This document shows positions 2,726-41,185 of a DNA stretch of 64,000 nt, piece after piece (within the stretch, counting starts at the first letter, position 1; each line of letters starts with the position of its first letter). Source of the stretch: Myxococcales bacterium. Lineage in GTDB: Bacteria; Myxococcota_A; Polyangia; Fen-1088. The position numbers and the translations under genes are program-made. Location of the stretch: assembly GCA_022184915.1 (NCBI GenBank), contig JAGTJU010000008.1, forward strand, positions 6,760 to 70,759, written 5' to 3'. Under the pieces are notes generated by a model. It worked only from the letters and a program-made list of their open reading frames with translations. It searched no databases and was not told the DNA's origin.

Positions 2726-3457
2726 TCACGGATCCGTTCGGTCCACGTCCTCGATGGCGTGGCCCAGAAGCGTGAAGAGCGCCTCGAGGGCGCCGGACGG
2801 GTTGTCGGACACGTGGGTGAGCGCATCGAGCGGTGCGGGCCAGCGCCTCGTCGCCGCCGCCAGGACCGTGCGCAACTTGGTGTCGGGCACGGTGAGGCCG
2901 CGCAGGCGAAGGAGAGCCAGCAGAGGGTAGCGGACCTGACGGAGCTTGTGTTCGAGCGCATTCACGAAGAATCGGCCCTGTTCCATCGCATCGATGGTTA
3001 GGCGGCGCAGCCGTGTGTTGATCTCGCGAAGCTCCTGCTCGATTCGCAAGCGCAAGTGCTCGTCCGAAACATCTACGCCTTCGAGGGGCGGGCGGCCCGC
3101 CAGCACGACGTGGCAGGCGGCGATCTCATCGTAGAACAGGGGAAAGACATCGGCGGAACGGGCGATTTCCCCGCGCAAGAGGAGCATGCTCTCAATGCGA
3201 GCGGCATCACGGGCCAGTCGCAATGGTTGCCGCAGTTCCGTCAACAGGGGAACCGACAGCGATTCGAGCACGATGATCAGATCCACGTCGCTGCTGCCCG
3301 GGCGGTACTCGCCGCGGGCCACGCTGCCGTGGACCGCCAGGGACACCAGGTTGTCCTGCAACATCGTCTGGAGTTGCTGACTGAGCTTTTCGAGCTGGGT
3401 TTTCGTGGGTGCCGGAAGCGGGAGTGCTTCGCCAGGCCAAACTGCCGTGACGGTCAT
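2726..3457 (-). CDS. nucleotidyltransferase-domain protein (pol-beta-like NTase)
   Basis: HGSVARGEYRPGSSDVDLIIVL matches the GSx9-13DxD NTase signature. The start was chosen at MTVTAVW, which gives an ATGA stop/start overlap with the upstream DUF692 gene. Confidence 0.6.
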   Translation of the reverse strand: MTVTAVWPGEALPLPAPTKTQLEKLSQQLQTMLQDNLVSLAVHGSVARGEYRPGSSDVDLIIVLESLSVPLLTELRQPLRLARDAARIESMLLLRGEIARSADVFPLFYDEIAACHVVLAGRPPLEGVDVSDEHLRLRIEQELREINTRLRRLTIDAMEQGRFFVNALEHKLRQVRYPLLALLRLRGLTVPDTKLRTVLAAATRRWPAPLDALTHVSDNPSGALEALFTLLGHAIEDVDRTDP

Positions 3458-4869
3458 CGTGTCATCCTCTCGAGCGGTGCTGCGGTGTTTTGCGTTGCCA
3501 GCCGGTGGAGTGCATGGGGCGGCAACCAGAGCCGTACGGGGCGGCCGAAGCCTGCGCCCTTGAATGCCCAGGCGCAATCGCCCCCGGGAAGGCGTGCGCG
3601 CCCGAAAAAGGGCGTCCACCGGGGGGCCCATCCGCGCCCGCCGCCAAGGGGCCGAAAGCGGGCCCGCAGGTTCAGAAGATCGAGCTGGGCCTCCGCCGCG
3701 AACGCCGGCTCAGCCGCGGCCGCGTGAGCCACGGTGAGGGCGTCATCGACGCTGGCCAATCGGCCGGCCCGAGGGCGACTCCTGAGCGCGTCGATGGCCA
3801 GATGGACGATGTTGTGGTCGGCGCGGCGAAGCCGGGGCAACAGCGGCAAGGCCGCGTCGACGCGCTTTCGCACGAGCAGCCTTCGGGTCCGGTCGACATG
3901 ACGAACCGAAACGTCGCCCCCGCCGGGCGGCGGCACGGCGGTGAGCAGAGCTGCGAGCCGTTCCTGGTCGATCGCCAAGTCGGTTTGCGAGCCCTCGAGC
4001 CAACCGGACCCCGGCCGCGTGGACGCGCAGCGCACCGGGACCTGCGGACCCTCGCGGGGTGTGGCCAGGCAACGGGCGAGTGTTGCCAGCTCGGCGCACA
4101 GCTCGTCAAACGGCGGGAAGTTGTCGTCCCGTTCGATGACGGCAGGCCGTGGGCCCACCGCGCGGGTGACCTGCTCGACGAGCGCAAACACCGCGGACGG
4201 AATGGGGTGCGCGTGGGTGTCTACGTAAAAGCCGTCCTCGCGCAGGCCGCCCGCCACATGCAACATGGCCACCCGGTCGAGCGGGAAGCGCGCCAGGCGC
4301 TGGGAAGGCTCTTCGCCTTCGTTGATCGCGTTGGCGTAAAGGTTTGCCACGTCCAGGAGGAGCGCACACCCGGTGGCCTCGGCAACCTCGAAGTAAAAAT
4401 CTTCCTCCCGCATCTGGTCGCCTGACCAGGGTACGGTCCAGACCACGTTCTCCAACAACAAGGGAATGTCGGGCAGATGTCGGCGGGCCCGCGCGACGTT
4501 GCGGGCGACCGTGGCCACGGCGGCGCGCGTGCGGGGCAGGGCTGTGAGGTGGCCGATCTCGTGGCCCCCTGCACGGACGAAGGCCACGTGCTCGGAGACG
4601 AAGGGGGCGTCGAGCTGTCGGGCCAGGCGACCCAGCCGGATGGCGCGGCCATCGTCGATGCCCTCTGCGCTTCCAAGCGACAGCTTCACGCCGTGAAGGG
4701 CCACAGGGAGGGCCTGAGCCACCGCCTGGACCTCGCGTGCGATGCGTGAATCAGCGAGGCAGTTTTCGGCCACGACCTCGACGAAGCCCACCGTGCCCGT
4801 CTGGGCCAGCAGATCCCCGGCCAGTTCTGGACGCCACCCGATTGCCACGGCGTTTGCCGCGAGAGTCAT
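3454..4869 (-). CDS. DUF692/MNIO-family enzyme (MbnB/TglH/BufB-like TIM-barrel) with a ~190-aa C-terminal extension of unknown family
   Basis: The N-terminal ~280 aa (VGFVEVVAEN… HGVKLSLGS… LLDVANLYAN… MLHVAGG) align motif-by-motif with the two other DUF692 ORFs in this window and with the xylose-isomerase-like DUF692 fold. The gene is ATGA-coupled to the downstream NTase. Confidence 0.65.
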   Translation of the reverse strand: MTLAANAVAIGWRPELAGDLLAQTGTVGFVEVVAENCLADSRIAREVQAVAQALPVALHGVKLSLGSAEGIDDGRAIRLGRLARQLDAPFVSEHVAFVRAGGHEIGHLTALPRTRAAVATVARNVARARRHLPDIPLLLENVVWTVPWSGDQMREEDFYFEVAEATGCALLLDVANLYANAINEGEEPSQRLARFPLDRVAMLHVAGGLREDGFYVDTHAHPIPSAVFALVEQVTRAVGPRPAVIERDDNFPPFDELCAELATLARCLATPREGPQVPVRCASTRPGSGWLEGSQTDLAIDQERLAALLTAVPPPGGGDVSVRHVDRTRRLLVRKRVDAALPLLPRLRRADHNIVHLAIDALRSRPRAGRLASVDDALTVAHAAAAEPAFAAEAQLDLLNLRARFRPLGGGRGWAPRWTPFFGRARLPGGDCAWAFKGAGFGRPVRLWLPPHALHRLATQNTAAPLERMTR

Positions 4870-5045
4870 CGGGGCGCATCTTATAGCGACACCCCGAAAG
4901 GGGGAATGATTCCAGGACGGGGCTCACCTGGAAGCACGTCACTCCGCGGCAGAAACGCCCGATAAAATATGTCTTGTGAGGTCGTCGTTGGAATTGTTCG
5001 ATCGGGGCGCACATCGCCGTAAACTGCGCTGCGAGAGACCCAACA
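4870..5045. promoter_or_regulatory. divergent intergenic (promoter) region between the DUF692 fusion gene and the Cys/Gly-tail membrane protein gene
   Basis: 176-bp gap between divergent start codons. It contains a partial copy (4944-4966) of the repeat-family motif ACATATTTTATCGGGCGTTTCTG. Confidence 0.3.
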
Positions 5046-6107
5046 ATGACTTGGCAGGGTGCCTTCCTTCAGGCCGTCGACTTTTACCCGCTCAACGTGT
5101 CCAGCGGGCCGCTCTTTCTCCTTGTCTACCCTGTGGCAGCATTCGTCCTGCTGCGCTTGGGCGCAGGGCTGGGGTGGTTGCTTGGTGACGTGCTCACCCG
5201 AGCCGCGCCTGCGCCTGCGCCTGCGCCTGCGCGTGCGTCAGCTCCCTACCGCGAGCCCGAGGCCTCACGTTTCGGCGACAGGCTCCAGATCGGTTTGCCA
5301 CCTGGACCCGCTTGGCACCTGGCCATCGCGTTTCTCAGAGGCGGAAGAGATGCGGTGGCCGAGACCCTGGTGGCTCGCGCGTTGGCCGCAAAGTGGCTGC
5401 TGAGCAGCGGCGAGGGCTTTCGTGTAGACGGCGAGCCCACGTCGCTCGATGCGGACCAGCGGGTGCTTCACCACGAACTGGCGGCGCTCGACCCCTTGAC
5501 CGGCGCGGACGTCGCCCGGATCGCCCGCTCCGTGGCGAACAGTCTCGAGTCCGAAGTGAAGGAGGACCTCGAACGCGCTGGCTTCCTGTTTTCGGGGGTG
5601 GGCGGCCGGGTGCGTGCCGGCCTGCATGCTCTGGCGCTGGGCCTCGTTTTGGCCCTGGGTTTGGCGCGCGCGGTTCGCGGTTCCTTGCTGGGACGCCCCT
5701 TCACGTTCTTGGTCATCGAGATGTTCGTGGTGGTGCCGCTCGGTTGGCGCTGGTTACGCCGGCGGCGGCGGGTCACGCGCAAGGGGAAAGCGTACCTGAA
5801 GTGGCTCGAAGACGTGACGGACAGCCTGCGCGAAGACGTGAACGAGGGCCGGCGCAACACGCCCTGGGACCTGTCGCTGGCGGTCGCCTGCGCAGGCGCC
5901 GTGCTCTTGCCAAGTTCGTTGGGATATCCTCTTGCGTCCTTCCAGTCGCTACCGCGCTCTGCCGGTTCGAGACAAAGCTGTGGGAGCAGCTCGACCAGCA
6001 GCTGCAGTTCCAGCACGAGTAGCTGTAGCTCGGGCTCCAGTTGCGGAGGCGGTGGCGGGTGCGGCGGTGGTGGTGGCTGTGGAGGGGGCGGGGGCTGTGG
6101 TGGGTAA
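5046..6107 (+). CDS. membrane protein with Cys/Ser/Gly-rich C-terminal tail (TIGR04222-like architecture)
   Basis: 353 aa with several predicted TM helices. The C-terminus is SRQSCGSSSTSSCSSSTSSCSSGSSCGGGGGCGGGGGCGGGGGCGG. The antisense ORF 5468-6223 is a Pro-rich artefact. Confidence 0.5.
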   Translation: MTWQGAFLQAVDFYPLNVSSGPLFLLVYPVAAFVLLRLGAGLGWLLGDVLTRAAPAPAPAPARASAPYREPEASRFGDRLQIGLPPGPAWHLAIAFLRGGRDAVAETLVARALAAKWLLSSGEGFRVDGEPTSLDADQRVLHHELAALDPLTGADVARIARSVANSLESEVKEDLERAGFLFSGVGGRVRAGLHALALGLVLALGLARAVRGSLLGRPFTFLVIEMFVVVPLGWRWLRRRRRVTRKGKAYLKWLEDVTDSLREDVNEGRRNTPWDLSLAVACAGAVLLPSSLGYPLASFQSLPRSAGSRQSCGSSSTSSCSSSTSSCSSGSSCGGGGGCGGGGGCGGGGGCGG

Positions 6108-6295: not shown

Positions 6296-6350
6296 CCCGG
6301 CAGCAAGGCTGAGGATGCGAGGCGGCTTGCGTTAGTTGACAGAATACATT
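6296..6350 (+). repeat. repeat-family copy A (CCCGGCAGCAAGGCTGAGGATGCGAGGCGGCTTGCGTTAGTTGACAGAA…)
   Basis: One of at least 8 copies of the same ~65-bp unit in this window (see findings). Its CCCGGCAG end is a sharp boundary. Confidence 0.7.
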
Positions 6351-6830
6351 GCTCGAAATTGATCACTTTTTGACGCGAGTGGACTTCGTGCTTGAACTTC
6401 CTGTGCGCCACATTTTTTCGACGAAAGACTGAAGGGCGCTGTCGTACGTGGTGCCAGGCAGATCGTGCTTCTCTGCGCAGGGCTCGACAGCCGAGCGCAC
6501 TGGTTCCGGCAGATGCTTGAGGGTGTGACGGTGTTCGAGGTCGAGAAGGTGGCCGCCCTTTTTAAAATTTCACGCTCCATGCGCAGGGTCTTTACCTCGC
6601 GCCGAAGGGTCGAAAGTTCCTCACGCTCAGCCGTCGTCAGAGCGCCCTTGGGGCCTCGGCCTGCATCGGTATCTGCCTGACGGATCCACGTCCGCACGAG
6701 GCTCTCGGCGAGGCCCAAGTCCCGAGCCACCTCCGGTATCCCCCGCCGTCCGCTCTGGACGAGGGCGACTGTTTCACTCTTGAACTCCGGGGTATGGACC
6801 CGCCGGGTTCGTCTTTGCCTTGCTCATGTG
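6332..6830 (-). mobile_element. IS3-family transposase OrfA remnant (frameshifted, no OrfB)
   Basis: MSKAK then a +2 shift gives RRTRRVHTPEFKSETVALVQSGRRGIPEVARDLGLAESLVRTWIRQ… LTTAEREELSTLRREVKTLRMEREILKRAATF, the canonical IS3 OrfA HTH/leucine-zipper pattern. It degenerates after AATF and abuts repeat copy A. No integrase ORF follows. Confidence 0.55.
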
Positions 6831-7101
6831 GTCACCTTTCCACGCTCTTACAACTGAGCGCCGGTGTCCACTGAATCGGGTCAACCCCGTACGGTCCTTT
6901 CCCCGAAGCGGAAGCGTACCAAGCATGGGTTGATGCCTGGGCGGGCAGCACGGATCCGCTGTTCTTTTCCGTTTGCAACCATCAAGGACAAGCTTTGGGT
7001 GCGCTGCCTATCTTCGCATCGTGCCGGAGATAGGGTGCATTGAAGTGGGACACCTGAACTTCTCACCGCGCTTGCAGCGAACGCCCGCGGCCACGGAAGC
7101 G

Positions 7102-8397
7102 CTACCCCGCAAGCCCAGCCACCTTCCGCGCCGCCACACGCTGCTCATGCTCGAAGGCATCGGCGAACGCTTCCAGCTCCTGCTTCGTCATGCCCAGCGC
7201 TTTGCCTTCGGTCCGCCAGCGGCCAACCGCACTTTCAACCTCTGCGAGGATCTCGCGCGCCCGATTCGGCGATAGACGAAAATAAGCGCAGACGGACAAC
7301 AAGGCGTCGACGCTCGCATCGGGACCGGTCTCTTCGGAGATCCAGGTCTTGAGCTCGCGCACCCGTTCGGGAAATGGGTTTACGTCGAACGCGGGGGCGA
7401 GCCGCCACTGTCCGCGCTGAACATGCAGGAACCCGTGGTTCATGAGGTGATCGTCCACGTTGGTGATCAAGATCGAAAAAGCCATCCTCCGCCACAATTC
7501 TTCCGTGTCTGCCTGCGGCCGCACGCCCCATTGACGAAGGGCGTCGACGATCTCGGCGTAGGTATGTTCGGTAGAGTCGCTTAAATCAGCGCCAAGCATC
7601 GTAGCCGCCGAGACGTACATCAGACGACCGCCCGCCGGGTGCCGATCAAACCGTCGAATGAGAGCGACCGGCGCACCGTCGCTGTCGACCAGCCTGGCTA
7701 CGGCGGCGTCGATGCCAGCCAACCCAGCAAGTCGCAGGGCAAGCACTTCTCCTTTCGTGACGGCACGTTCGTCGCTCACGCTCGGAAACTTGCCGATCGC
7801 CAAGCCGCCGTCGTCGTCAATCACGGTGCACTTCGGCCGCAGCCCACCGAGCGAAGTTCCTCTTCCGCGCAAGTAAGCCAGGTCGGCAGACGTCTCCGTC
7901 TGCGTCTCCACGGCGCGGCTCGAGGCCAGAAGCGTGCCGAGCTCGATCAGGGGAGGAGCGGTGCGACGCCCTTCTTCGGGGGCCCTCTCGAAAATTCCGC
8001 GCTCGTCGCGAAACCGCAGGGCGCCCATCCGGCTCCCATCATCTACGGCCAGCAAGAAATCCAGCGCGTTCAGTGGCGCCGTCTGCACAGGTAAGCCTGC
8101 ATGTTTGGCTTGCTGCCGGCGCTTGGCATGATCGCGCGCAATCACCCTTCGCCCCCAGCCGTCTGGCTCCGTGTCCGCAATGGCGCGGTGAAACAGCGAT
8201 CCTCCTTCCGTCTTGCGGCGATACTGAGGACCTGCCACGAGCGGCAGCGCTGGATCAACCACGAAGGCTTCGCCGCTCGACAGCCAGAGCGGATCGTACT
8301 CGAACGCAGCGATCTCTCGCCCGCCTTCCTGCGCGTGCCGCAGAAGCCCGATGGGGCGCGCGCCATCGCCAAGATGGATCCACAACGTGCGCTTCAC
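7102..8397 (-). CDS. hipA: HipA-family toxin (Ser/Thr kinase)
   Basis: 431 aa. The C-terminal AFSILITNVDDHLMNHGFL matches the HipA catalytic motif. The N-terminal HipA_N-like region is present. ATGA overlap with the upstream HTH gene. Confidence 0.8.
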   Translation of the reverse strand: MKRTLWIHLGDGARPIGLLRHAQEGGREIAAFEYDPLWLSSGEAFVVDPALPLVAGPQYRRKTEGGSLFHRAIADTEPDGWGRRVIARDHAKRRQQAKHAGLPVQTAPLNALDFLLAVDDGSRMGALRFRDERGIFERAPEEGRRTAPPLIELGTLLASSRAVETQTETSADLAYLRGRGTSLGGLRPKCTVIDDDGGLAIGKFPSVSDERAVTKGEVLALRLAGLAGIDAAVARLVDSDGAPVALIRRFDRHPAGGRLMYVSAATMLGADLSDSTEHTYAEIVDALRQWGVRPQADTEELWRRMAFSILITNVDDHLMNHGFLHVQRGQWRLAPAFDVNPFPERVRELKTWISEETGPDASVDALLSVCAYFRLSPNRAREILAEVESAVGRWRTEGKALGMTKQELEAFADAFEHEQRVAARKVAGLAG

Positions 8398-8726
8398 AAC
8401 GGCTCGATCGCTTTCTTCGGGCGTATCCGCTTTGGCAAGCGTTCGAGATCCAGAAGCAACCCCTGGTCATCCCGCCGCGGGTCGATGATCTCGCTCAAGG
8501 CGTCGCCGAATCCCAGCACGAAGAGCGCCATCGCATAGACACCCAAGGAGACGGTGGGATCGCCTTTCTCGGCGCGACGATAGGTGCTTGTGGCGACCCC
8601 CATGCGCTCGGCCATCATCGCCGCGGTGAGGTGACGCTTCTTGCGAGCCACGCCAAGGTCGAAGCCAAACTTCGCAAGCCCCCGCCGAACCCGCGGCGGC
8701 AGTGTGTCAGTGACCCTGGAGCGCAT
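8394..8726 (-). CDS. hipB: HipB-like XRE-family HTH antitoxin
   Basis: 110 aa with an HTH (RKKRHLTAAMMAERMGVATSTYRRAEKG). It is overlap-coupled to hipA. Confidence 0.7.
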   Translation of the reverse strand: MRSRVTDTLPPRVRRGLAKFGFDLGVARKKRHLTAAMMAERMGVATSTYRRAEKGDPTVSLGVYAMALFVLGFGDALSEIIDPRRDDQGLLLDLERLPKRIRPKKAIEPL

Positions 8727-8754
8727 GATTACAACCTATATAGAGATTCCAGGA

Positions 8755-8880
8755 GGCCATTATAGCGCATATATGCTCAATTAGGTGCACAACAACAAGT
8801 CCGCCCTGCTGCGCGGACAATGTCGTTTATATATGAGCGAATTAGTTCAATTAATAGCTCATATATGAGCGTCTACTCTG
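8755..8880. promoter_or_regulatory. AT-rich promoter/operator region upstream of hipB with repeated palindromes
   Basis: A low-GC island in a 69 % GC background. It holds perfect palindromes GCATATATGC and GCTCATATATGAGC (the latter twice as CATATATGAGCG), as expected for HipB operator half-sites. Confidence 0.4.
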
Positions 8881-8960
8881 GTGGCCAGGAATGACCTTCG
8901 AGCCATGGGTTTTGCGCGCGGTGGAGTCAAAGAACACCACCTTCTGGTTGAACGATGTCA

Positions 8961-9200
8961 TCAGCGCGCGCGCCGGTAGTGCATGGCGAGCGCGCCGTTA
9001 CGGAGTGGCGTCGCCGAGACCAGGTCGAGCCGTCGCGTGCTGGGCAGCCCGCTTCCGTACAGGGTTGGGCCGTGGCCGGCGATCCTGGGGTGGACGAGAA
9101 ACTTGTACTCGTCGATCAAATCCAGCCGGTCCAGCTCGGTTGCGAGCTTGCCGCTACCGACGAGCACGCCGGCTGGGGTTGCGTCCTTGAGCTTCTGCAC
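8961..9200 (-). pseudogene. 3' fragment of a RibD-C/dihydrofolate-reductase-family gene
   Basis: The 79-aa C-terminal piece (LVGSGKLATELDRLDLIDEYKFLVHPRIAGHGPTLYGSG) resembles the RibD_C fold. The 5' part is replaced by an IS21 fragment. Confidence 0.45.
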
Positions 9201-9202
9201 GC

Positions 9203-9394
9203 CCGTGATCAGCTCACCAAGACAGTCCCGCCGTCTTCACGGCTGGTGGATGCGCTGCCCTCGTTGCGCGCGTGGCGTCCAGATCTCGGCACCGATCATC
9301 CACTTGCGCAACGCCTCCCGGGATACACGAACGCCATGTAGCTCAGCAGGTTTTTCGTGAGTTTTCACTTTGCGTCTACACGCCGCTGTTAGGC
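9203..9394 (-). mobile_element. internally deleted fragment of the type-2 IS21-family element (istA codons ~105-150 joined to its IRL)
   Basis: 9203-9360 is >90 % identical to 31130-31290 (istA of the 29852-31658 element). 9360-9394 (TTTTCACTTTGCGTCTACA) matches that element's terminus. Confidence 0.5.
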
Positions 9395-11196
9395 CCAAGT
9401 AGAAATGTCCCCATTCCTGCAAAGTAGGAATGTCCCCTTATGGGTATTGAGGGATGGTAGCACCTTGGGGGCGGCGGGTGCGGAGTCGGCCGATCAGCGG
9501 GCCCCCAATGGCCCGCAGGCCGGCGGACCCGTTGCCATTGAGTTGATGCTCATCGCCGCCCCCCGTCAGCGGCCCTCGCACTAGACTCGGCCGCCTTGGC
9601 TCGGGTTTGGATCTCCAATTGTTCGCGGTCGCGTTTGCGCTGCTTACTGGCGTCGTTGTATCGCTTTCGCCGTGCTTTCTGTTCGGCCTCGAACTTGGCG
9701 AAGAAGTTTGCCATTTCAGTCCCGCATTCAGGTGACCCTTGCGTGGCCGCAATGGCTGAAGCCAGTCGGTCAGTGTTGGGGACTGATGGGATCACATCAG
9801 CAGTACGATTGGTTTCTGCGCGCGACTCGCGTAAGTGCGTTTTTTGTCGAAGCGTAAGTTTTTTCGAGGCCAATCGACGCTGGTCGCGCTCCTCCTGGCC
9901 TGCTCGGATGGTTGAGAGCACGGCGCCAAGCCGCTTGTTCTCGACAATCGCACCGGGAGCCACCAGAGGTTGCTTGTCGAGCACGGTATAGGTCAGAAGA
10001 TGGTTGGCGCAGCGGATCTCGACCTGACCATCCGCCGCTTCGAAGAGGCGCACGCGACGTCCGGCGAGGCTGAGTGATTCTGGGCTGGGCACAATCAGGT
10101 ACGTACGCCGCTGATAATGCACGACCAGGTTGCGCGTCATCGTGCGCTCCTCTTGCCAGGTGAAAACCTCCGAAAGGACTTCGCCTGGTTGCACCGGGCG
10201 GTGCGCATCATGGGGGTTCATCGGCGCATGTGCAAAGCGGCGGTTGTAGTCGACCATGAACTCCGGTGCATACGCGTTTGCGTCCGCCATCGTGCTTATT
10301 TCACGCAGACGCATTTCCTTGACGAGCCGGTCCTGCAAGGTCTTGTTCATGCGCTCGACACGGCCTTTGGCCTGCGGCGTATTGGCGCAGATGATCTCGA
10401 TGTTGAGATCGCCCAGCGCGCGACCGAACTGTGTAACACCGGCGGAACGGCCGCTCGAGCCTTCCTGGTTCACGCGGAAGATGCTGTGTTTGTCGCTGTA
10501 AAACGCCACCGGTTTTCCGTAGTGACTTAGATACGACTGCGTGGCGGCAAAATAGTCGAAGGCCGATTCACTCACCACAAAACGCAGTTCCATCAACCGT
10601 CCCGTCGCATCGTCCACGTAGACCAATGCCGTGCAGCGATCAGCGCGCGCCTCGAACCACTCATGGTCGCAGCCATCAATTTGCACCAGCTCGCCAAGAC
10701 ATTGGCGGCGGTGCCGGGGCTGATGAACACGCCGTTTGCGCTCCCCACGGGTGAGCCACAGTCCGGCCTCAGCGAGCCACCCACGGACAGTCTCACGGCT
10801 CGCGTGTATGCCGTGGATCTCAACGAGCTTCTCGTGCGCCAGCTTCGGCCCGAAATCCGCGTAGCGCTCGCGTACGAGAGCCACAACCATTGCCTTCGTT
10901 TCAGCAGCGAGCTTGCGATTGCTCGGACGCCCTCGCAGCTGCGACGTAAGCCCAGCCAACCCTTGCGCTTTGAACTGCCGGCAAAGGCGCTTTACTTGGC
11001 GTACGCTGAGCCCCAGCAGGCCCGCGGCTTTGGACTGTGTCAGACGCTTCTCGAGTACCCGACGGATCATCTCGCCTCGATCGATCTCTCGGTTGGACAT
11101 GGTTACGAATCCCTTCGGCATGAGTCCACCCATGAGGACGCATAACGCGGCTCAAAGGGGACATTTCTACTTGGGCCGAAGGGGACATTTGAACTT
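9394..11196 (-). mobile_element. IS21-family element (type 1), istA only, no istB
   Basis: Ends are TGTTAGGCCCAAGTAGAAATGTCCCC and (rc) TGTAGCGCCCAAGTTCAAATGTCCCC, i.e. TGT… termini with GACATTT sub-repeats. Flanking CGCCGC direct repeat. Only ~150 bp remain between istA and the end, so an IstB ATPase gene cannot fit. Confidence 0.75.
9550..11133 (-). CDS. istA: IS21-family transposase IstA
   Basis: 527 aa with an N-terminal HTH and DDE core (…VQIDGCDHEWFE… DDATGRLMELRFV…). ~50 % identical to the second IstA at 30071-31606. Confidence 0.85.
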   Translation of the reverse strand: MGGLMPKGFVTMSNREIDRGEMIRRVLEKRLTQSKAAGLLGLSVRQVKRLCRQFKAQGLAGLTSQLRGRPSNRKLAAETKAMVVALVRERYADFGPKLAHEKLVEIHGIHASRETVRGWLAEAGLWLTRGERKRRVHQPRHRRQCLGELVQIDGCDHEWFEARADRCTALVYVDDATGRLMELRFVVSESAFDYFAATQSYLSHYGKPVAFYSDKHSIFRVNQEGSSGRSAGVTQFGRALGDLNIEIICANTPQAKGRVERMNKTLQDRLVKEMRLREISTMADANAYAPEFMVDYNRRFAHAPMNPHDAHRPVQPGEVLSEVFTWQEERTMTRNLVVHYQRRTYLIVPSPESLSLAGRRVRLFEAADGQVEIRCANHLLTYTVLDKQPLVAPGAIVENKRLGAVLSTIRAGQEERDQRRLASKKLTLRQKTHLRESRAETNRTADVIPSVPNTDRLASAIAATQGSPECGTEMANFFAKFEAEQKARRKRYNDASKQRKRDREQLEIQTRAKAAESSARAADGGRR

Positions 11197-21306: not shown

Positions 21307-22008
21307 TCAATGACGTCGGGCGGGAACCAACAACATCGCATCCTCGATGTTCGCCCGTAGCCAAAGATCGTCCCGTGCCAGGGGCATGGCAAGTAGGGAA
21401 TCTCGTGGCGCCGCGGCTCCCGCGCGGTAGACGTGAACCGTCCAGTCGGCCCCCCACGTGTGGATGAGGCGCGTCGCCAGGGCAAGGCGGCCACCCGGAG
21501 GCACGTAAGCTGTGTTCCACAGCGCCAAAGACACGCGATGGTCGAGCTGGTAGCCATGATCGAGAACGTCGCGAGCGTCTGCGATCAGCGTGGCGGGTCG
21601 AAGAAGATCGTTGCCCAAAAGGCCTGCGTAGTTGTCGAGCGCCGAGGGCGCGGCGACCACCTCGAAGGTCACGTTCTGCTGCGCCGCCACAGCCGCGGCC
21701 ACAGGAGTGAAGGGGTTGCCGAAGCTAGGATTACCCAACACGGCGACCGCCGCTCGCTCGTGGGCCCGTGCTGCAGAGACCGCGAGCTGAGCGGCTTTCG
21801 CCGTCACTCCAAAGGGGCCGGCGTCTCGGAAGACAGCCTGGTCGAGGTTGATGGCCGTTGGCGCCAATCGATGAAGCCTTTGTGACAGAACGGGCGGCAA
21901 ACCGAAGTGTCCCACCCACCTGCATTCCGACAGCGTTCGCGCCCCTTGCAGAGTCAGCTGATCTCCGGAGCCAAATCCAAGGCCGATCACGGAGAGCATC
22001 GAGATCAC
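21307..22008 (-). CDS. second tetrapyrrole-methylase-family SAM methyltransferase
   Basis: GTG start. MLSVIGLGFGSGDQLTLQGARTLSECRWV and AVLGNPSFGNPF (GDP-loop) fit the TP_methylase fold. 233 aa. Confidence 0.6.
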   Translation of the reverse strand: MISMLSVIGLGFGSGDQLTLQGARTLSECRWVGHFGLPPVLSQRLHRLAPTAINLDQAVFRDAGPFGVTAKAAQLAVSAARAHERAAVAVLGNPSFGNPFTPVAAAVAAQQNVTFEVVAAPSALDNYAGLLGNDLLRPATLIADARDVLDHGYQLDHRVSLALWNTAYVPPGGRLALATRLIHTWGADWTVHVYRAGAAAPRDSLLAMPLARDDLWLRANIEDAMLLVPARRH

Positions 22009-22009
22009 G

Positions 22010-23005
22010 TCACTTCCACCTCACCCCGTCCAACTTGGCTCCGGTGAGGATGGCCCCATCGAGATTTGCACCACGGAGGTCCGAATTGCTCAGGTTGGCC
22101 TCCGTCAGGTCGGCGCCTGCCAGACTGGCGCCACGAAGATCCTGGTTCGAGAGGTCCGCACCTTTGAGGACAGCGCCGCGGAGCTGAATGACGGGGAAAC
22201 TGGGTGTCGCCATCGCTGCCTGGTAGGCCGCCGCAGCCGCGTAGAAGGACGGGTCGATGGCGGGTGCGCAGCGAACGGCGGCTGGGTTGTAGAAGGACGG
22301 GTCGATGGCGGGTGCGCAGCGAACGGCGGCTGGGTTGTAGAAGGACGGGTCGATGGCGGGTGCGCAGCGAACGGCGGCCGGGTTGTAGATGGACGGGTCG
22401 ATGGCGGGCGCGCAACGAACGGCGGCCGGGTTGTAGATGGACGGGTCGATGGCGGGTGCGCAACGAACGGCGGCCGGGTTGTAGAAGGACGGGTCGATGG
22501 CGGGCGCGCAACGAACGGCGGCCGGGTTGTAAATGGACGGGTCGATGGCGGGCGCGCAACGAACGGCGGCCGGGTTGTAAATGGACGGGTCGATGGCGGG
22601 TGCGCAACGGACGGCCGCGGGGTTGTAGGCGTCCTGGGGCGGGTATCTCGTAGGTTGCTCCAGAGCACCTAGGTGTGGATCTACTTTGAATTCCTTTTCC
22701 TGACTCATCACGTTCTCCTGAGCGGCAATGGGATTTGGGTAGGGATATTCGGCATGCAGAAGCTTGCCCGTCTGCGGATCACGGACGTATCGGGTTCGGG
22801 AGGTGGTCTCGACGATGCGACGGTGTGCGTCCAGCGCGCGACGAGCCACTTCCCAGTCGATCGCGCGCAATGAGGCCAGTTCGCGACCCGTGAGGCCAGC
22901 CCTGCCGGCCGCGTTTTCGGTCCTCGCCAAGCGCTCGAGGGTGTCGAGGTCGATGCGCTCCAACGTCAGCTCACTGAAGAGCCGCTGCAGATTCTCCAGG
23001 CTCAT
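22010..23005 (-). CDS. repeat protein / candidate multi-core RiPP precursor: ~100-aa N-terminal domain, 8 tandem 16-aa repeats [15 protein letters not shown](I/F), C-terminal pentapeptide-repeat domain
   Basis: 331-aa ORF. There is an internal SD-like AGGAGAACGTG-ATG (Met at ~22703) just before the repeats. The repeats occupy ~22241-22630. The C-terminus [45 protein letters not shown] forms A(D/N)LxG pentapeptide repeats. Confidence 0.6.
22241..22630 (-). repeat. tandem array of 8 near-identical 48-bp repeats (coding)
   Basis: GTAGAAGGACGGGTCGATGGCGGGTGCGCAGCGAACGGCGGCTGGGTT repeated 8 times with 0-3 substitutions. The three long alternative-frame ORFs over it (22005-22607, 22105-22668, 22204-22653) are artefacts of the repeat. 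Confidence 0.9.
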
Positions 23006-23020: not shown

Positions 23021-23917
23021 TCAGGCGGCGCGGGCGCGGGTCGCCGCCGGGAAGAGATCGTTTAGGATCTCGAGGTTGTGGAAAAGGACCCAGGGCTCTG
23101 CCCCGATTGTCTCGGTGTATACGGCGCGAAGGTTTGTACAACGTGGAATCACGTGTTGGAGGGCTTCGACGGTGATGGGGTTGAGGGGACCCGTGTAGTC
23201 GTCGACCCAGGTGAGGTGGGCGGGATCTCCGAACATGCCGCCGGCGGTGTTGATCTCTCCGACGTGACTCAAGGGGAATTCGTCGATGCGATCGAGGAGA
23301 GGGCGTCGATGAAGCAGGTTGTAGCTGAAGAAGTGGCCCACATCGAAGTTGAGCGTTGCGCCCGTGGCTTCCACGAACGAACGGAAGAACGTGGAAAGGT
23401 GCATCTCGTCCGGTCCGGGCATGTAGAAGTGCGGAACCTCTGGGAAGAGCGACACCGGTACTCGTTCGCTCACCTCGCGCATCCGTCGAATACAAACCGA
23501 GAGGCATTCCTCCGTGAGGAAGGGCTGCACGTAGTTGGGGTGGCCTTGCGGACGAGAGCGAGCGAAGTTGGTGACTATGACGTCTTCGGTGGCCCACTCT
23601 GGCCGCCAGATGTCGACGATCTCATGGATTCTGCTCCAGTTCGCCGTGATCGTCGTACCATCGAAGGGAAGCTCGAAGTCCCCGCTGGCGTGCCAAACGT
23701 ACTTCAATCCTGCGGGAAGTTGGGCCTTTAGCCGCTCCATGAAACCGCGGGAGTAGTTCTCGTAGGCGTAGACCGTCAGATACTGACAAAGGCCGCGCCG
23801 GTAACACTCGGTTACCACGTCAATGACCCCTGGCTCGCACAAATCGTTCGCCACACCCACGCCAAGCGCTCCCGCTTGGATCCGACTCGAATCTGACACT
23901 CCAAACACCTCCGGCAT
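23021..23917 (-). CDS. DUF692/MNIO-family enzyme, first gene of the tailoring operon
   Basis: 298 aa. GVGVANDL…VIDVVTECY… YVWHASGDF… TLNFDVGHFFSYNLL… LSHVGEINT align block-by-block with the DUF692 domains at 3454-4869 and 40012-40956 and with the MbnB pattern. Confidence 0.65.
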   Translation of the reverse strand: MPEVFGVSDSSRIQAGALGVGVANDLCEPGVIDVVTECYRRGLCQYLTVYAYENYSRGFMERLKAQLPAGLKYVWHASGDFELPFDGTTITANWSRIHEIVDIWRPEWATEDVIVTNFARSRPQGHPNYVQPFLTEECLSVCIRRMREVSERVPVSLFPEVPHFYMPGPDEMHLSTFFRSFVEATGATLNFDVGHFFSYNLLHRRPLLDRIDEFPLSHVGEINTAGGMFGDPAHLTWVDDYTGPLNPITVEALQHVIPRCTNLRAVYTETIGAEPWVLFHNLEILNDLFPAATRARAA

Positions 23918-36122: not shown

Positions 36123-36253
36123 GGTTTCCTCTGTAGTCGTTGACGGCCCGGAAGGCCCAAGTTACGTGAAGTGCGCATCCTCTCCGCGATGGCGGTTCGT
36201 GGGAATGCGACACTTTGTCGCAGGGAGCTTTTTCCGCTGCGGATCGTAGGAAC

Positions 36254-36880
36254 TCACTTCAAGATGGCGCGCATGTCTCGAAAACCCGCCGTATCGGGCG
36301 GAGACACATCGAACCCCTCGGTCCCGATATCGACCGAAACCGTGTGGTTAGCCCCCGCGCCGTTGCGATCGGTGAGCTCCATTCTCAGTGCGTAACCCCC
36401 TGCAGCGATCTCACACCCGTGCAAATCCCGAAGGTCCCAAACAACCTCGTGAACCGTGTGTCCCGTCAAGGTAGCACCCGTGATGGCATCCACCTCGTTG
36501 CCCCCCGAGACGGCGAGCCAGGCCGAGAGCCACTTGGCGCGCACGTTGCCCCACGAAGCGAGCGTACGGACGAACTGCCCTTGGCTCGTCTCCATCCAAA
36601 TGGCGCCCACGTTCTTGGGTGCGAAGCGGCCTCCCAGGGGAGCCGTGCGGACCGTGAAGGTGAGCGTGCGTTCAGATCGTGGAACCGCGCACGCCGGATT
36701 GTTGTCCGGAGCGTCCGCAGACCCTGCATCTCGGACGAACAGCTCGGTAGGCAGGGTAAGCGCGTCGGTGTCAAGGAAGTCTTTGGCTGGGTCTGTCGGG
36801 TAGCAGGCCGTGAGGCAAACCAGGACGAGAGCCGAAAGCCACGACGCGCGAGCGGGTGCGCCCTGTTTCTGGGTTCGTTC
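36254..36880 (-). CDS. lipoprotein, hypothetical (start codon not identified)
   Basis: The C-terminal ~200 aa of ORF 36254-37999 are protein-like (signal …WLSALVLVCLTACYP, then a beta-rich domain ending DMRAILK). The upstream 380 aa of that ORF are an antisense artefact. No ATG is present near the signal peptide. Confidence 0.4.
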   Translation of the reverse strand, partial: ERTQKQGAPARASWLSALVLVCLTACYPTDPAKDFLDTDALTLPTELFVRDAGSADAPDNNPACAVPRSERTLTFTVRTAPLGGRFAPKNVGAIWMETSQGQFVRTLASWGNVRAKWLSAWLAVSGGNEVDAITGATLTGHTVHEVVWDLRDLHGCEIAAGGYALRMELTDRNGAGANHTVSVDIGTEGFDVSPPDTAGFRDMRAILK

Positions 36881-37954
36881 GTCGTGGGGGCGTTCTCCTG
36901 CGGGGGGCCTGCTCGGACCACGTTGGCCTCGTCCTCCGTCTACGTGCGGGCGGATACCGACCGCACCACCGTCGTCTCCCCGGAGATTCGCGCCGCGGCC
37001 GCGGTGGGAGAGAGGGTCACCGTCGAGGCCTCCGAGGTCGTGGATGCGTGGACGGGCGCCTCGATCGACGTCATCACGGCTGCCACCGGCACCATCCGCG
37101 AGCGGCGCTTCGAGACGAACGCCCAGGTGGGCTACAGGGGTGACCTCTGGGCGTTCGCCCTGGGGCTTCGGCACTCTTTCGAGAACGACTACGGGTCTTT
37201 GGGGGGCTCGCTGCGGCTGGCGGCTGACGTCTTCCAGCGCAACACCACCTTGGCTTTGGTGGGTTTTGGAAGCACGGATGCAGTGGGACGTGCGGGAGAT
37301 CCAGGCTTCCGCCGCGGGGTCGTGCAGCTGGGGGGGCGTGTCTCCGTCACGCAGGTGTTGACGCGTTCGACGCTGGCCGAGTTGCAGTGGGAGAGCGTTC
37401 GCCTCGAAGGATATCAAGCGAGTCCCTATCGCTTCGTGGGCGTTGGTGGCGATGGCGTGTGTGGGGGGCGAGCGGTGTTCTGTCTGCCCGAACATGTACC
37501 GGACGGTCGTCTGCGCAACGCACCCTCGATCCGGTTGCGCCAGGCGCTCTCCACCCGCGCCTCTTTGGGTTGCGATTATCGCTTCTACTTCGATTCTTGG
37601 GGCTTGCAGTCCCACACCATCGAACCTGACCTTGCCTGGCTGATGGGGCGGTCGGGAACGTTGAGCGTAAGCTTTCGCCATCACACGCAAGGACGGGCTG
37701 ACTTTTACCGCGCTCGTTACCTTGGTCTCGACGGCAGTGAAGGATTTTTTACGCGTGATCGCAAGCTCTCGACGTTCTCGTACCATGGTGTGGGACTCTC
37801 CTACGTTCACGATCTGAGGCTTCGCGACGAGGGTACGGTCCTGCAACTGGGGGCTCGTGCCGCCTTTACACGATTTCATTATCTGGAGTTCCTTGGGCTT
37901 GAACGGGTATCGGTGCTCGAGACCACGGCGTACGTCGCCTTGCGCTTCGAGTGA
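36810..37954 (+). CDS. outer-membrane beta-barrel-like protein (DUF3570-like pattern), 5' end uncertain/frameshifted
   Basis: From ~36840: RRASGCALFLGSFVVGAFSC (signal-like), then alternating-hydrophobic beta-strand sequence through …TAYVALRFE. The ATG at 36810 is in a different frame, so either a frameshift or a non-ATG start is needed. Confidence 0.4.
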
Positions 37955-38679
37955 CGTCGGCGCAGGTGACGACCCGCAACGAGGGCGAGACAAGCCCATG
38001 GCACAGACGGGATGCTCCCCCCGGCGGCGGACAGTGAACAGCCCGCCAGGGGTGTGCCTTCGGCGCGCAGTTCGTGACGAACTTCGAGCACACCGTCACC
38101 TTGGCTGTCGCCTGCGCTGTTTGAAAGCACCACCCCGAGTGCGAAGGTCAGCGACTTCGTCGGGGGCGCTGTAAAGGAGAGCGAGACCTCGCTGGCGCCG
38201 CAGTCGAGAACACCCACCACGCGCCGGAAACCAAGGTCATGCGCGTAAAACGCAGGTGGCGCGCTACCGACTTCGTCGCAGCGGGATGCTGGGTTCGCCT
38301 CGGCAGCAGGGGGCAATGTCACGGGAGGTGAACGGCCGAGGTCATCCATCAGTTCCATTTGCAGTGCGTGAGAGCCCCGATCCGGTGGCCAGCTCAGAGT
38401 GAGATTGTAGGTGGCGCCGGGAATGAAGGTGCGGGGCAGGGCGCTCTCGACGGGGGCGTCGTTCGTGAGGTTCCGCCAGGCGATGGCCACGACCGGCTCG
38501 GGGCCTCCCTCGTGGCATACACCGCAGCCAAACCCATCACCTGGCGCTCCCGTGAATTGTCTGCCCCCGCCACCGCCCTCCAGCGCCGGCAGCGCGAAGC
38601 GCCCGGGGTCCGAGAACGCCTGCGCAGATGAAGGAGCTGCAAGACCTGCGAGGCAGAACGCGGCCATCAGTGGCTTCAT
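37879..38679 (-). CDS. secreted CxxCH-motif protein with MYXO-CTERM-like C-terminal sorting tail
   Basis: Signal MKPLMAAFCLAGLAAPSSAQA, CGVCHEG, and a C-terminal …GCSLSAAGGSIPSVPWACLALVAGRHLRRRH (GCS, hydrophobic stretch, RRR). Confidence 0.5.
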   Translation of the reverse strand: MKPLMAAFCLAGLAAPSSAQAFSDPGRFALPALEGGGGGRQFTGAPGDGFGCGVCHEGGPEPVVAIAWRNLTNDAPVESALPRTFIPGATYNLTLSWPPDRGSHALQMELMDDLGRSPPVTLPPAAEANPASRCDEVGSAPPAFYAHDLGFRRVVGVLDCGASEVSLSFTAPPTKSLTFALGVVLSNSAGDSQGDGVLEVRHELRAEGTPLAGCSLSAAGGSIPSVPWACLALVAGRHLRRRHSKRKATYAVVSSTDTRSSPRNSR

Positions 38680-39137
38680 CGAAGAGTCTCCGCGGTCACG
38701 GCCCAGAAAAAGAGCGCCTCCCATCGGGGATCCCTCTTTGTCAGATAGATGCTTTGGCCCCAGGGGTCGTCACCCGCGTGACCTGCACCGCCTGCCTCCA
38801 CGGCCAACGGTTTTCGAAGGAGGGGGCCGCGCCGGACGCCGGATTCGCCCGCCAGCATGGAGGCCGCTCGTGTATACGCGAGGGCCAGCTCCTCAGCCGT
38901 GGGAGGATCGAAGAGGGCCGTCGCTGGGTCGAGCCGGGTGCGCCCGGGGCCGTGCACGCGAAAGAAGCGCTGTTCGTTTCCGTGACAACCCGAGAACGCG
39001 CAGTCGGCGAGCAGAATCGGATAGACGGTGGACGCAAACGCCGCAGGGTCGGGGCGGGGGGGGGACGCCTCCTCGGGAGGGGGTGCGCAGGCCCACAGGA
39101 TCGAGCCGACGAAGCACGCGCCCCATCGCCTCAGCAT
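38676..39137 (-). CDS. small secreted protein with CAFSGCH motif
   Basis: Signal MLRRWGACFVGSILWACA, 153 aa. It is overlap-coupled between the DUF2063 gene and the CxxCH-protein gene. Confidence 0.45.
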   Translation of the reverse strand: MLRRWGACFVGSILWACAPPPEEASPPRPDPAAFASTVYPILLADCAFSGCHGNEQRFFRVHGPGRTRLDPATALFDPPTAEELALAYTRAASMLAGESGVRRGPLLRKPLAVEAGGAGHAGDDPWGQSIYLTKRDPRWEALFFWAVTAETLR

Positions 39138-40015
39138 GGGTCTACGCCCTCCCAGAAGCCGAACTTCACCGACTCGGCAAGCCAGGCCTTCACAAGGTGC
39201 GAAAGACGAGTGGGGGGCAAAGCGATGGCTTCACGCTCGAGAGCCGCCAGGGCCTCGGCCAGCGGCAATTCCGACAAGCGTTCGTAGAGACGTGCCTGCA
39301 ATTCGTCGATCAGCCACAGGCGAGGCCCGGTTTCGCCCCTTACGAGGGCGGCGTGAACCCGCCGGGGGTGTTGCGGGGGTAGGGGCACGGGGGCTTCTGG
39401 AGGGAGTGAGGTCAAGCGGCTGCGCAACGCGAGCAGGGGCCAGTCTTCCTCGACCAAAAAGAACCGACCCGAGGGACGAAGGCGGCCCGTGGCCAGCTGG
39501 TCCGTGCCGACTCGCTGAAACGCACGCGACGTCTCCGCCCGGGGTTCCGGGGCCCAAAAAGCTGCACGGTACGCAGCATCGATGCGAGCGGCCTGGACGA
39601 GCGCCGTGGCGGATACGGCCGCACCCTCGAACGGCGGGAGTCCTGCGTTGTGACCTTGCGCGAGCCAATCGTCGAAGCCGAGGGCAACCTCCCCGAGGTC
39701 GTGCCCCCGGGGTGGGTGCTTTTCCAGGAAGCCTGCGACCAAACCGTTGAAGCCCCAAGCCCCCGCCAGTGCCGCGACCAGGCGATACTCGTTTTGCATG
39801 ACCGCGAACAAACGAAACCAGTACTGTCGCTGGTAGACCGCCAGCCTTTCGCCGGGACTGAGCCCATGGCCCGCTTTGGCCTCGTTCAACAGTCGACGAG
39901 GATAGTCTTCAGGACGGGCTCGCAGCGTCCGCGACCTGCGGTCCAGGGGCGTTCTCAGGACGTCAGAGAAGTCTCTCTGAAACTGCGCGAGCCAGGCAGG
40001 GCCTGCCAGGGTCAT
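39131..40015 (-). CDS. DUF2063-family protein (MNIO partner; BufC/HvfC-like)
   Basis: Start at MTLAGPAWLAQFQRDF (ATGA overlap with the DUF692 stop). RLAVYQRQYWFRLFAVMQNEYRLVAALAGAWGFNGLVAGFLEKHPPRGHDLGEV matches the DUF2063 core (vYrnn…FP…G…F…HPP…L). Confidence 0.6.
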   Translation of the reverse strand: MTLAGPAWLAQFQRDFSDVLRTPLDRRSRTLRARPEDYPRRLLNEAKAGHGLSPGERLAVYQRQYWFRLFAVMQNEYRLVAALAGAWGFNGLVAGFLEKHPPRGHDLGEVALGFDDWLAQGHNAGLPPFEGAAVSATALVQAARIDAAYRAAFWAPEPRAETSRAFQRVGTDQLATGRLRPSGRFFLVEEDWPLLALRSRLTSLPPEAPVPLPPQHPRRVHAALVRGETGPRLWLIDELQARLYERLSELPLAEALAALEREAIALPPTRLSHLVKAWLAESVKFGFWEGVDPC

Positions 40016-40956
40016 GCGCGGACCTTTCGTGCCTCGGCGAGTTCCTCGATGACGACCTCGAGGGGTGGTATCGCTGCGTCCCACTCGACGAGCGTAGGAA
40101 AGGGCCCCCCCAAAGCCCAGGCGAAGCGATAGAGCTCCCAAACCTCCCGAATGATGGGTTGGTCGTGGGTGTCGATGATCGTTCCATCCGGCTGTTTCGT
40201 GTGGCCAGCGAGGTGCACCTGCAGCACGCGCGAGTAGTCGATCGCCTCGAGGTACACCCGTGGGTCGAAGCCGTGGTTGACGCTCGAAACGTACACGTTG
40301 TTGATGTCCAACATGAACCAGCAGCCTGAGTCTTTGACGACGCGGGAGTAAAACTCCCACTCCGGCATGGAGGAGCGCTCGAATGCGACGTAGGTGGACA
40401 GGTTCTCGATGCCAAAGGGCCGGTCAAGCCGGCGCTGCACTTCACAAGCACGCTCTGCAGCCAGCTCGACGAGCTCGGGGACATAAGGGGTGGGCAGCAG
40501 GTCGTGGTGCGAGACGCCTTCGGCCCCCGACCAGCACAGGTGATCGGTGACGAAAGGCACCGCGAGAGCATTGGCCAGATCGGTGACCTTCTGCAGGTAC
40601 TCTTCGTCGAGAGGCGCGTGTCCCAGGAGGTTCAGCGTCACCCCGTGCATGACCACGGGATAGAGGGCACGAATCCGTGCCAGATGCCGGTTGGGTGGTG
40701 AGTCTGGACGAAGATAGTTCTCCGTAATGATCTCGACGTAATCAACGGGTGGTTTGGTCGTCTGGAGTGCGTCGTAAAACGGGGGCCGGAGCCCAACGCC
40801 CAGGGCGTCGCGGGCGAGGGCAGGCCTGGCGGTGTCTTTGGCCTTTGGAGACACGAGCCCGGGAGGGTACCTCAGGATCGTTCTGCCTCCCCTGCGGCAA
40901 TAGGTCGCACCCCCTGACCTTGCCCCCGGGGCTGGCTGGCGGCACCCTCGTGGCAT
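40012..40956 (-). CDS. DUF692/MNIO-family enzyme (BufB/HvfB-like)
   Basis: LGVGLRPPFYDALQTTKPPVDYVEIITENYL… HGVTLNLLG… FMLDINNVYVSSVNHG… LQVHLAGH is a canonical DUF692 domain. The true start may be a GTG near 40851 rather than the first ATG. Confidence 0.7.
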   Translation of the reverse strand: MPRGCRQPAPGARSGGATYCRRGGRTILRYPPGLVSPKAKDTARPALARDALGVGLRPPFYDALQTTKPPVDYVEIITENYLRPDSPPNRHLARIRALYPVVMHGVTLNLLGHAPLDEEYLQKVTDLANALAVPFVTDHLCWSGAEGVSHHDLLPTPYVPELVELAAERACEVQRRLDRPFGIENLSTYVAFERSSMPEWEFYSRVVKDSGCWFMLDINNVYVSSVNHGFDPRVYLEAIDYSRVLQVHLAGHTKQPDGTIIDTHDQPIIREVWELYRFAWALGGPFPTLVEWDAAIPPLEVVIEELAEARKVRA

Positions 40957-41185
40957 GCAGGATCGCAGTTTGCGCACACGTCTCGGCCTTCTTGCCTGCG
41001 CGCTTCTTTCGTTCCTCACGGGCTGCCTGCGTGTTCCGCCCTACCTGCGAGAGACCCTGGCCCGACGCGACATGACCCTGGGGCGGGAGGCCGCCCTTCG
41101 AGCGGGGGAACGCCACGCGCAGGCCTACCGAGAAGGTGCGAGTGGGGGAGGAGAGGTCCGAAGTGGAGGTTGCGGGTGCAACTGA
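40955..41185 (+). CDS. 76-aa lipoprotein ending in GGCGCN (candidate MNIO substrate/precursor)
   Basis: Lipoprotein signal MQDRSLRTRLGLLACALLSFLTGC, then a 52-aa mature peptide ending …GGGEVRSGGCGCN*. It is divergent from the DUF692-DUF2063 operon. Confidence 0.4.
   Translation: MQDRSLRTRLGLLACALLSFLTGCLRVPPYLRETLARRDMTLGREAALRAGERHAQAYREGASGGGEVRSGGCGCN

Follow-up and report, generated by a model that had tools for sequence, protein, structure and literature searches.

Among peptide-modifying enzymes, the MNIO (DUF692) family is one of the largest uncharacterised groups, and the products known from it are natural products that bind copper. The question whether its members act on true membrane proteins too was raised in 2025, on computational grounds only. 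Here, we analyzed a 64,000-nucleotide stretch of a Myxococcales genome (GCA_022184915.1, contig JAGTJU010000008.1, positions 6,760 to 70,759 of the forward strand; hereafter the window), in which genes for an MNIO enzyme, a nucleotidyltransferase (NTase) and a TIGR04222 membrane protein lie side by side. The gene set constitutes an MNIO/TIGR04222 module in which the partner domain is fused and the NTase conserved, a variant that differs from the published clusters.

The MNIO gene (3454..4869, minus strand; open reading frame (ORF) and PF05114 match) encodes a 471-aa protein, composed of a catalytic TIM-barrel domain (residues 9-268; 4066..4845, minus strand) and a fused partner domain of the SCO6045_C / PME-type 2 kind (residues ~291-450; 3520..3999, minus strand; delimited by hhalign and a structural model). 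Downstream lies the gene for a 243-aa, two-domain NTase of the pol-beta type, in which a helical bundle follows the NTase core (2726..3457, minus strand). The two genes share an ATGA (3454..3457, minus strand): read directly from the sequence (cgATGAcc), the MNIO stop codon TGA at 3456..3454 overlaps the NTase start codon ATG at 3457..3455. A 176-bp intergenic region (4870..5045, no strand; from the ORF coordinates) separates this pair from the divergent TIGR04222 gene (5046..6107, plus strand; 353 aa), the putative substrate gene, identified by hidden Markov model (HMM) and hydropathy. Its translation ends in a Ser/Cys/Gly tail (residues 311-353; 5976..6104, plus strand), the last 21 residues of which are encoded by nt 6042-6104. 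An independent Logan assembly contained the same three-gene arrangement. All of the gene features described by a first-pass annotation made from the DNA alone were present where it had placed them, and were accurate in every particular. A consensus scan of positions 2400-6400, including the intergenic region, detected neither a sigma-70-like promoter nor a terminator, and no conserved small ORF was found within 4870..5045.

The catalytic domain belongs to the MNIO family, as initially proposed: PF05114 (MbnB_TglH_ChrH) matched residues 9-268 across profile positions 3-262 of 263, with 259 bits against a cutoff of 25 (E = 5e-77). The domain has the TIM-barrel fold of solved MNIOs and retains the invariant His/Asp/Glu residues of the iron-ligand set. 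It is 45-48% identical to the TIGR04222-linked MNIOs of Micromonospora and Obscuribacterales, and 31% identical to the second MNIO of the same window. The nearest named families by NCBIfam score are BufB (NF050167, 207 bits against 310) and HvfB (NF003818, 172 against 360); membership in either was rejected, as both scores are below the equivalog cutoffs.

The ~190-aa C-terminal extension was initially suggested to be a fused partner protein resembling MbnC, TglI or BufC. The fusion was borne out; at the sequence level, the resemblance to MbnC or BufC was not. The AlphaFold2 model of the 471-aa protein (mean predicted local distance difference test (pLDDT) 88.5) has the TIM barrel joined by a disordered linker (~270-290) to five or six helices, after which comes a small sheet of four or five short strands. 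The ~200 C-terminal residues had no match in Pfam, fold searches with whole-protein models returned only TIM barrels, and searching the sequences in PDB with a profile of the C-terminal domain yielded chance matches only (the best, at E = 0.042, was a designed protein). A homologue search with this domain alone returned nothing and missed even a 99%-identical protein, probably owing to a word-index limit. Sorangium, Minicystis and many Myxococcota metagenome-assembled genomes commonly encode full-length homologues of 450-500 aa (~50-54% identity over 93-95% of the query), and the motifs Q..vA..LT and R.R.vL..KRVD.ALPLLPRL are kept across the fused family. Aligned by hhalign, the fused-domain profile matched that of 13 stand-alone actinobacterial partners, including a 158-aa Micromonospora matsumotoense protein (94.6% probability, E = 7e-8, 127 columns), and two fused orthologues carried weak precomputed matches to PF26136 (SCO6045_C). 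Judged by this profile homology, the extension is a fused partner domain related to the stand-alone SCO6045_C / PME-type 2 partner. A DUF2063 (PME-type 1) identity was rejected: PF09836 had no match in the MNIO-fusion at E 0.01, and hhalign gave 0.1% against the window's own DUF2063 protein. By sequence, the domain is thus neither DUF2063, MbnC nor BufC.

The divergent gene had been described as encoding a polytopic membrane protein with a Cys-rich tail, and the translation agrees. Hydrophobic segments span residues ~18-40, 185-205, 214-235 and 276-296, and the TIGR04222 score was 64.1 bits (curated NCBIfam cutoff 43). Seven cysteines (positions 312, 320, 327, 333, 339, 345 and 351) are distributed over the 43-residue Ser/Cys/Gly tail, whose last 21 residues read C-G5-C-G5-C-G5-C-GG (protein terminus ...SCGSSSTSSCSSSTSSCSSGSSCGGGGGCGGGGGCGGGGGCGG). 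This is the TIGR04222 architecture of Antoine et al. 2025 (Microb Genom, PMC12452194): several transmembrane segments, then a Ser/Gly region with Cys. That study proposed, in silico only, that TIGR04222 proteins with C-terminal Cys/Ser/Gly tails are MNIO substrates served by PME-type 2 partners, and located the clusters mostly in Actinomycetota. The first-pass claim that a membrane-anchored substrate would be new is therefore not supported, since it is already published as a prediction. Neither the text nor the supplements of PMC12452194 mention nucleotidyltransferases or MNIO-partner fusions.

We scanned related genomes (one per species) and collected 59 loci with a fused MNIO and 21 actinobacterial loci. 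Tails were compared in the 45 fused-MNIO loci from which a downstream TIGR04222 homologue could be extracted. Although the bodies of these homologues are only 29-37% identical to the window protein, their ends hardly vary: after SSC-type repeats, the final ~21 residues almost always read C-G5-C-G5-C-G5-C, with GG, S or G behind. Over these 45 independent loci the tail glycines are encoded by all four codons (GGC 473, GGT 143, GGA 74, GGG 66), and mean column identity among 46 orthologues was 0.91 in the tail versus ~0.45 in the rest of the protein. The C-G5-C-G5-C-G5-C tail is, on this evidence from codons and alignment columns, under strong purifying selection. The first-pass annotation had considered that the tail might be absent from orthologues and hence a lineage-specific low-complexity extension; its presence, almost invariant, across the 45 related loci shows that it is no such extension. 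The five Myxococcota orthologues tested (L007, L001, L003, L020 and L039) scored 34-40 bits or had no match to TIGR04222, below the cutoff of 43, so that surveys based on this model miss the clade. Annotation pipelines and published surveys probably under-count it: for Sorangium cellulosum So ce56, the supplementary genome table of PMC12452194 gives the number of TIGR04222 proteins as 0.

Gene order in the relatives differed from that in the window. The first-pass annotation had asked whether the divergent pair is conserved; instead, the relatives are co-linear, with MNIO-fusion, NTase and TIGR04222 in this order on one strand in 45 genome loci. Four-base overlaps occur at the MNIO/NTase junction in 21/45 loci and at the NTase/TIGR04222 junction in 32/45, and the other MNIO/NTase gaps are ≤16 nt except in two loci. 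In most loci, the Myxococcota operon continues with a ~430-aa protein and a TauD/TfdA-type Fe/2-oxoglutarate dioxygenase (e.g. L001, 11108..13344, and more than 40 other loci), and look-ups that started from NTase or MNIO homologues recovered the same five-gene operon. The ~430-aa protein has a very conserved C-terminal motif (YLTKYFTPHPPGEPHFFVKPWAL...FHATPAVF) and a weak similarity to DUF6065 in 9/15 members (Pfam, best E = 0.0019); PDB and NCBIfam searches gave no match. No protease or exporter gene is conserved at these loci. At one metagenome locus (L083, 6037..7912), the operon is canonical except that three inserted genes, one for an AAA_21/AAA_15 ATPase and two small ones, separate the MNIO-fusion from the NTase.

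The window copy does not follow this canonical layout. Its TIGR04222 gene sits on the other side of the MNIO gene, upstream and on the opposite strand, and tblastn with 13 orthologues each detected neither the fourth nor the fifth operon gene in the 64 kb. Directly 3' of the TIGR04222 gene lies a transposase helix-turn-helix fragment (6332..6730), followed by HipA (7102..8397) with an XRE-like gene (8394..8726), and an IS21-like transposase (9550..11133), all on the minus strand. These mobile and toxin-antitoxin elements (6332..11133) fit a loss or relocation of the canonical downstream genes. Given the relocated TIGR04222 gene, the two absent genes and the transposase, hipBA and IS21-like neighbours, we regard the window copy as rearranged and minimal.

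The NTase is the component that sets this gene set apart from described DUF692 systems, as the first-pass annotation had surmised from the ATGA coupling. PF01909 matched the 243-aa protein with 35 bits against a cutoff of 21 (E = 1.5e-8), and the canonical GS...DxD...E site, including the third carboxylate, places it in the pol-beta superfamily. Its model (pLDDT 93.6) shows an NTase core and then a helical bundle. Within the window's NTase clade (29 sequences), G44, S45, D57, D59 and E89 are invariant. Resemblance to the aminoglycoside nucleotidyltransferases ANT(3'')/ANT(9) is confined to the fold (19-20 bits against cutoffs of 340-545), and a type VII toxin-antitoxin (MntA/HepT) assignment was likewise rejected (18 bits against 60; no adjacent HEPN gene, the neighbours being the MNIO gene and unrelated genes).

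Where enough downstream sequence was available, an NTase gene followed the fused MNIO in 47/53 loci. Among the six exceptions, three proceed straight to TIGR04222 (L012, L040, L055), two lack both NTase and TIGR04222 and have the fourth operon gene directly (L019, L048), and one has neither (L047). In Sorangium sp. So ce1128 (L021, 7950..10100, CP181432.1), the MNIO-partner ORF reads without a stop into the NTase (...VRLIEPRGVRMKTGT...), giving a three-domain protein of ~700 aa; a mutated stop codon or an error in sequencing could also account for this read-through. In the literature searched, neither the NTase link nor the fusion nor the five-gene Myxococcota operon was mentioned. This distribution bears on whether the NTase is an unrelated minimal nucleotidyltransferase of a toxin-antitoxin or defence system that neighbours the MNIO by chance, as HipBA, VapC-like and insertion sequence elements nearby might lead one to expect. 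Weak matches to the MntA antitoxin, HalB and PADLOC candidate NTases over the ~50-residue catalytic core could be cited for that idea. However, the scores are far under the family cutoffs (MntA as above), the PADLOC scan gave generic NTase-core matches only, which led us to reject a defence-system role, and the locus has no HEPN partner gene. The same position in 47 of the 53 evaluable loci and in distant lineages, together with the in-frame fusion to the MNIO in one genome, makes a chance association very improbable; synteny effectively refutes it. Its conservation across loci identifies the NTase as a real, conserved core component of the gene set.

Beyond the Myxococcota, an HMM search of 1.84 billion representative sequences retrieved 241 NTase proteins at E ≤ 1e-30 and 2153 at E ≤ 1e-10, most of ~250 aa and matched over both domains. 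A distant member from Obscuribacterales has the order NTase, TIGR04222 (tail ...CGGGCGGGCGGCGG), MNIO and SCO6045_C. A metagenome scan seeded with ten distant NTases (a 10-sequence alignment) yielded 80 loci. Of these, 18 are flanked by at least 2 kb on either side, and among them a Cys/Gly-tailed ORF was present in 18/18 and an MNIO in 17/18, in three gene orders. At another locus (L088, 6001..9727), one distant NTase precedes three tandem TIGR04222 paralogues with (CGG)n-type tails, on a contig that stops short of any MNIO gene. A marine variant (L158-L168, e.g. L160, 3816..6811) consists of MNIO, partner, NTase-like protein and one or two very small membrane proteins, of which an 86-aa two-helix protein bears the same Cys/Gly tail without the TIGR04222 body. 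What stays constant is thus the tail plus a membrane anchor. Overall, at least three lineages combine NTase, tail protein, MNIO and partner: the Myxococcota, the Obscuribacterales, and a range of unclassified metagenome contigs from soil and sea.

Taken together, the family assignments, partner homology, synteny, tail invariance and lack of a conserved small precursor ORF lead us to propose that the three genes probably form an MNIO-type protein-modifying module whose substrate is the C-terminal tail of the TIGR04222 protein rather than a small leader-containing peptide. This is in line with the published in silico study that put TIGR04222 proteins forward as substrates of MNIOs. Alternatively, the TIGR04222 protein could be a membrane partner (an anchor, exporter or sensor), with the enzymes acting on an unrecognised peptide or small molecule from elsewhere. 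According to PMC12452194, MNIO genes are absent from a third of TIGR04222-bearing genomes, C-proximal Cys is absent from more than a quarter of TIGR04222 proteins, and many clusters have no identifiable partner, all of which would suit such a role. By contrast, no small ORF upstream of the MNIO is conserved across the 45 loci beyond closely related Sorangium genomes, nor would one fit between genes whose junctions overlap. Within the protein, conservation is highest in the tail, which is kept where a minimal two-helix anchor replaces the N-terminal TIGR04222 body. The combination of MNIO, partner and tail protein recurs across phyla, with the genes in several different orders. We therefore consider a non-substrate role of the TIGR04222 protein improbable.

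Several observations weigh against tail modification by this module, beginning with the TIGR04222-bearing genomes without an MNIO just mentioned. Our literature searches (TIGR04222, MNIO/DUF692 with nucleotidyltransferase, SCO6045) found no experimental or biochemical work on any TIGR04222 system, and no modification shown for any member. Nor can the chemistry of BufB or HvfB be transferred to the MNIO with confidence, given that its scores stay under both equivalog cutoffs. Predictions of the side of the membrane on which the tail lies disagree. The positive-inside rule and hydropathy give an N-out protein with a ~150-aa cytoplasmic domain and an Arg/Lys-rich cytoplasmic loop (RRRRRVTRKGK), which suggests an external tail in the window protein if the fourth hydrophobic segment spans the membrane; in the 86-aa variant, the arginines that follow helix two point instead to a tail in the cytoplasm. 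The window copy itself, without the two extra enzymes and beside transposase remnants, could be decaying or functionally reduced. Two further points concern the NTase. None of the 21 actinobacterial clusters encodes one (0/21; order TIGR04222, unfused MNIO, ~140-170-aa protein), and in the distant NTase clade (L087-L168) the second catalytic Asp is mostly Asn (SDxN, 58/82 loci), whereas the window clade keeps DxD. The ancestral NTase role may accordingly not have been nucleotide transfer, but adaptor-like.

We hypothesize the following sequence of steps for the proposed tail-modifying module. The fused partner domain would dock the substrate and deliver the tail cysteines to the iron site, where the MNIO may oxidise them to 5-thiooxazole or oxazolone/thioamide, as family knowledge of BufB and HvfB on Cys-Gly motifs suggests. 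The NTase-like protein would act on the same tail, either transferring a nucleotide onto a hydroxyl of the Ser-rich stretch or onto an intermediate, or holding the tail for the oxidase. As the MNIO-fusion and the NTase lack signal peptides, both would work in the cytoplasm under either topology, and the tail would have to be modified there ahead of any export. The product would stay membrane-anchored as a bufferin-like, probably copper-binding, metal site.

For the NTase-like protein, a non-catalytic role as adaptor or chaperone that passes the nascent tail or the cytoplasmic domain to the MNIO, with the MNIO alone doing the chemistry, is possible, though we do not favor it. The DxN replacement in the broader family would fit, as would the position of the gene, almost always directly upstream of the tail-protein gene and often overlapping it, as for a stoichiometric partner; actinobacterial systems, moreover, work without an NTase. 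The five invariant active-site residues of the 29 window-clade sequences are hard to explain without catalysis, and the NTase clades may differ, with catalytic roles in some and non-catalytic roles in others. Returning to the modification of the tail, we suggest, tentatively, that the NTase-like protein is obligatory in a multi-phylum pathway in which the MNIO and a nucleotide-using enzyme turn the invariant C-G5-C-G5-C-G5-C tail into a new cofactor-like structure. This might be a membrane-tethered metal site of nucleotidylated or nucleotide-dependent poly-thiooxazole.

The closest known systems are the TIGR04222/MNIO/PME-type 2 clusters of Actinomycetota. What they share is a TIGR04222 protein whose Ser/Gly/Cys tail ends in ...CGGGGGCGG, an MNIO catalytic domain 47-49% identical to that of the window, and a partner of the fused domain's family; the 158-aa M. 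matsumotoense partner matches PME-type 2 model B of PMC12452194 in organism and length. They differ in that their partner stands alone and the NTase is missing, whereas the window has a fused partner, a coupled NTase and a rigid C-G5 x3 spacing. The bufferins (BufA/BufB/BufC) and Haemophilus HvfA/HvfB/HvfC are similar in that their substrates are Cys-bearing proteins rather than short peptides. According to PMC12452194 and paper abstracts, HvfA is modified at Cys next to Gly (EGKCG repeats), and the Buf and Hvf products are copper-binding heterocycles. Their partners, however, are DUF2063 (PME-type 1) proteins, unlike the window's fused domain, their substrates are soluble periplasmic proteins with Sec signals, whereas the candidate substrate here is a polytopic membrane protein without a signal peptide, and no NTase occurs in those systems. 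Methanobactin (MbnA/MbnB/MbnC) is more remote: the window MNIO reaches 39 bits against the MbnB equivalog cutoff of 325, and the methanobactin substrate is a short leader-core peptide that is cleaved and secreted, unlike at window-type loci, which conserve no gene for either step. MovX of the Vibrio methanobactin-like cluster, as PMC12452194 describes it, is an MNIO with its own putative substrate-binding domain, a fused winged helix, instead of a separate partner; by that description alone it is set apart by another type of fused domain, another substrate and the absence of an NTase. On the NTase side, ANT(3'')(9)/AadA, AAD(9), MntA-HepT, GlnE and DrrA share the pol-beta core, helical bundle and GS...DxD...E motif and transfer AMP to a hydroxyl group. 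The window NTase, unlike these, lies in a protein-modification operon rather than a resistance or toxin-antitoxin context, and its wider family is mostly DxN.

The module is compact. With three parts and an invariant 21-residue substrate motif that should suit mass spectrometry, it makes the membrane-protein question approachable, and the fusion of the partner to the enzyme leaves fewer proteins to co-express. The NTase adds a conserved component that published surveys have not named. If the tail is modified, chemistry of the RiPP type (peptides made by the ribosome and modified after translation) would extend to polytopic membrane proteins, and a nucleotidyltransferase would join the MNIO toolkit. 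If a nucleotide-dependent tail cofactor is real, the tail protein would be the first membrane-protein MNIO substrate shown, and no earlier MNIO pathway would have depended on an NTase. Beyond copper buffering, the modified tail could serve, for example, as a site for redox reactions or metal transfer on the surface of the membrane.

The window also contains two further DUF692-like genes, in line with the three loci counted in the first-pass annotation. The second locus (39131..41185) is of the classical type, with an MNIO (~40012..40830, minus strand; PF05114, E = 6e-93) and a DUF2063 partner (39131..40015, minus strand), and no bufferin-type precursor ORF was seen upstream of this MNIO. Two downstream ORFs (38676..39137 and 37879..38724, both minus strand) contain CxxCH-like motifs. 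Divergent from the MNIO, a 76-aa DUF4266 lipoprotein (40955..41185, plus strand) ends in ...SGGCGCN, another Cys/Gly C-terminus beside an MNIO. A DUF3570 beta-barrel-like protein (36215..37954, plus strand; PF12094, E = 2e-38) is encoded a few kb away; the DUF3570 and DUF4266 families are usually paired. The third DUF692-like gene (23021..23917, minus strand) is a weak, partial match (PF05114, E = 2e-8), and is followed by genes for a pentapeptide-repeat protein (22010..23005, minus strand) and a TP_methylase-family protein (21307..22008, minus strand).

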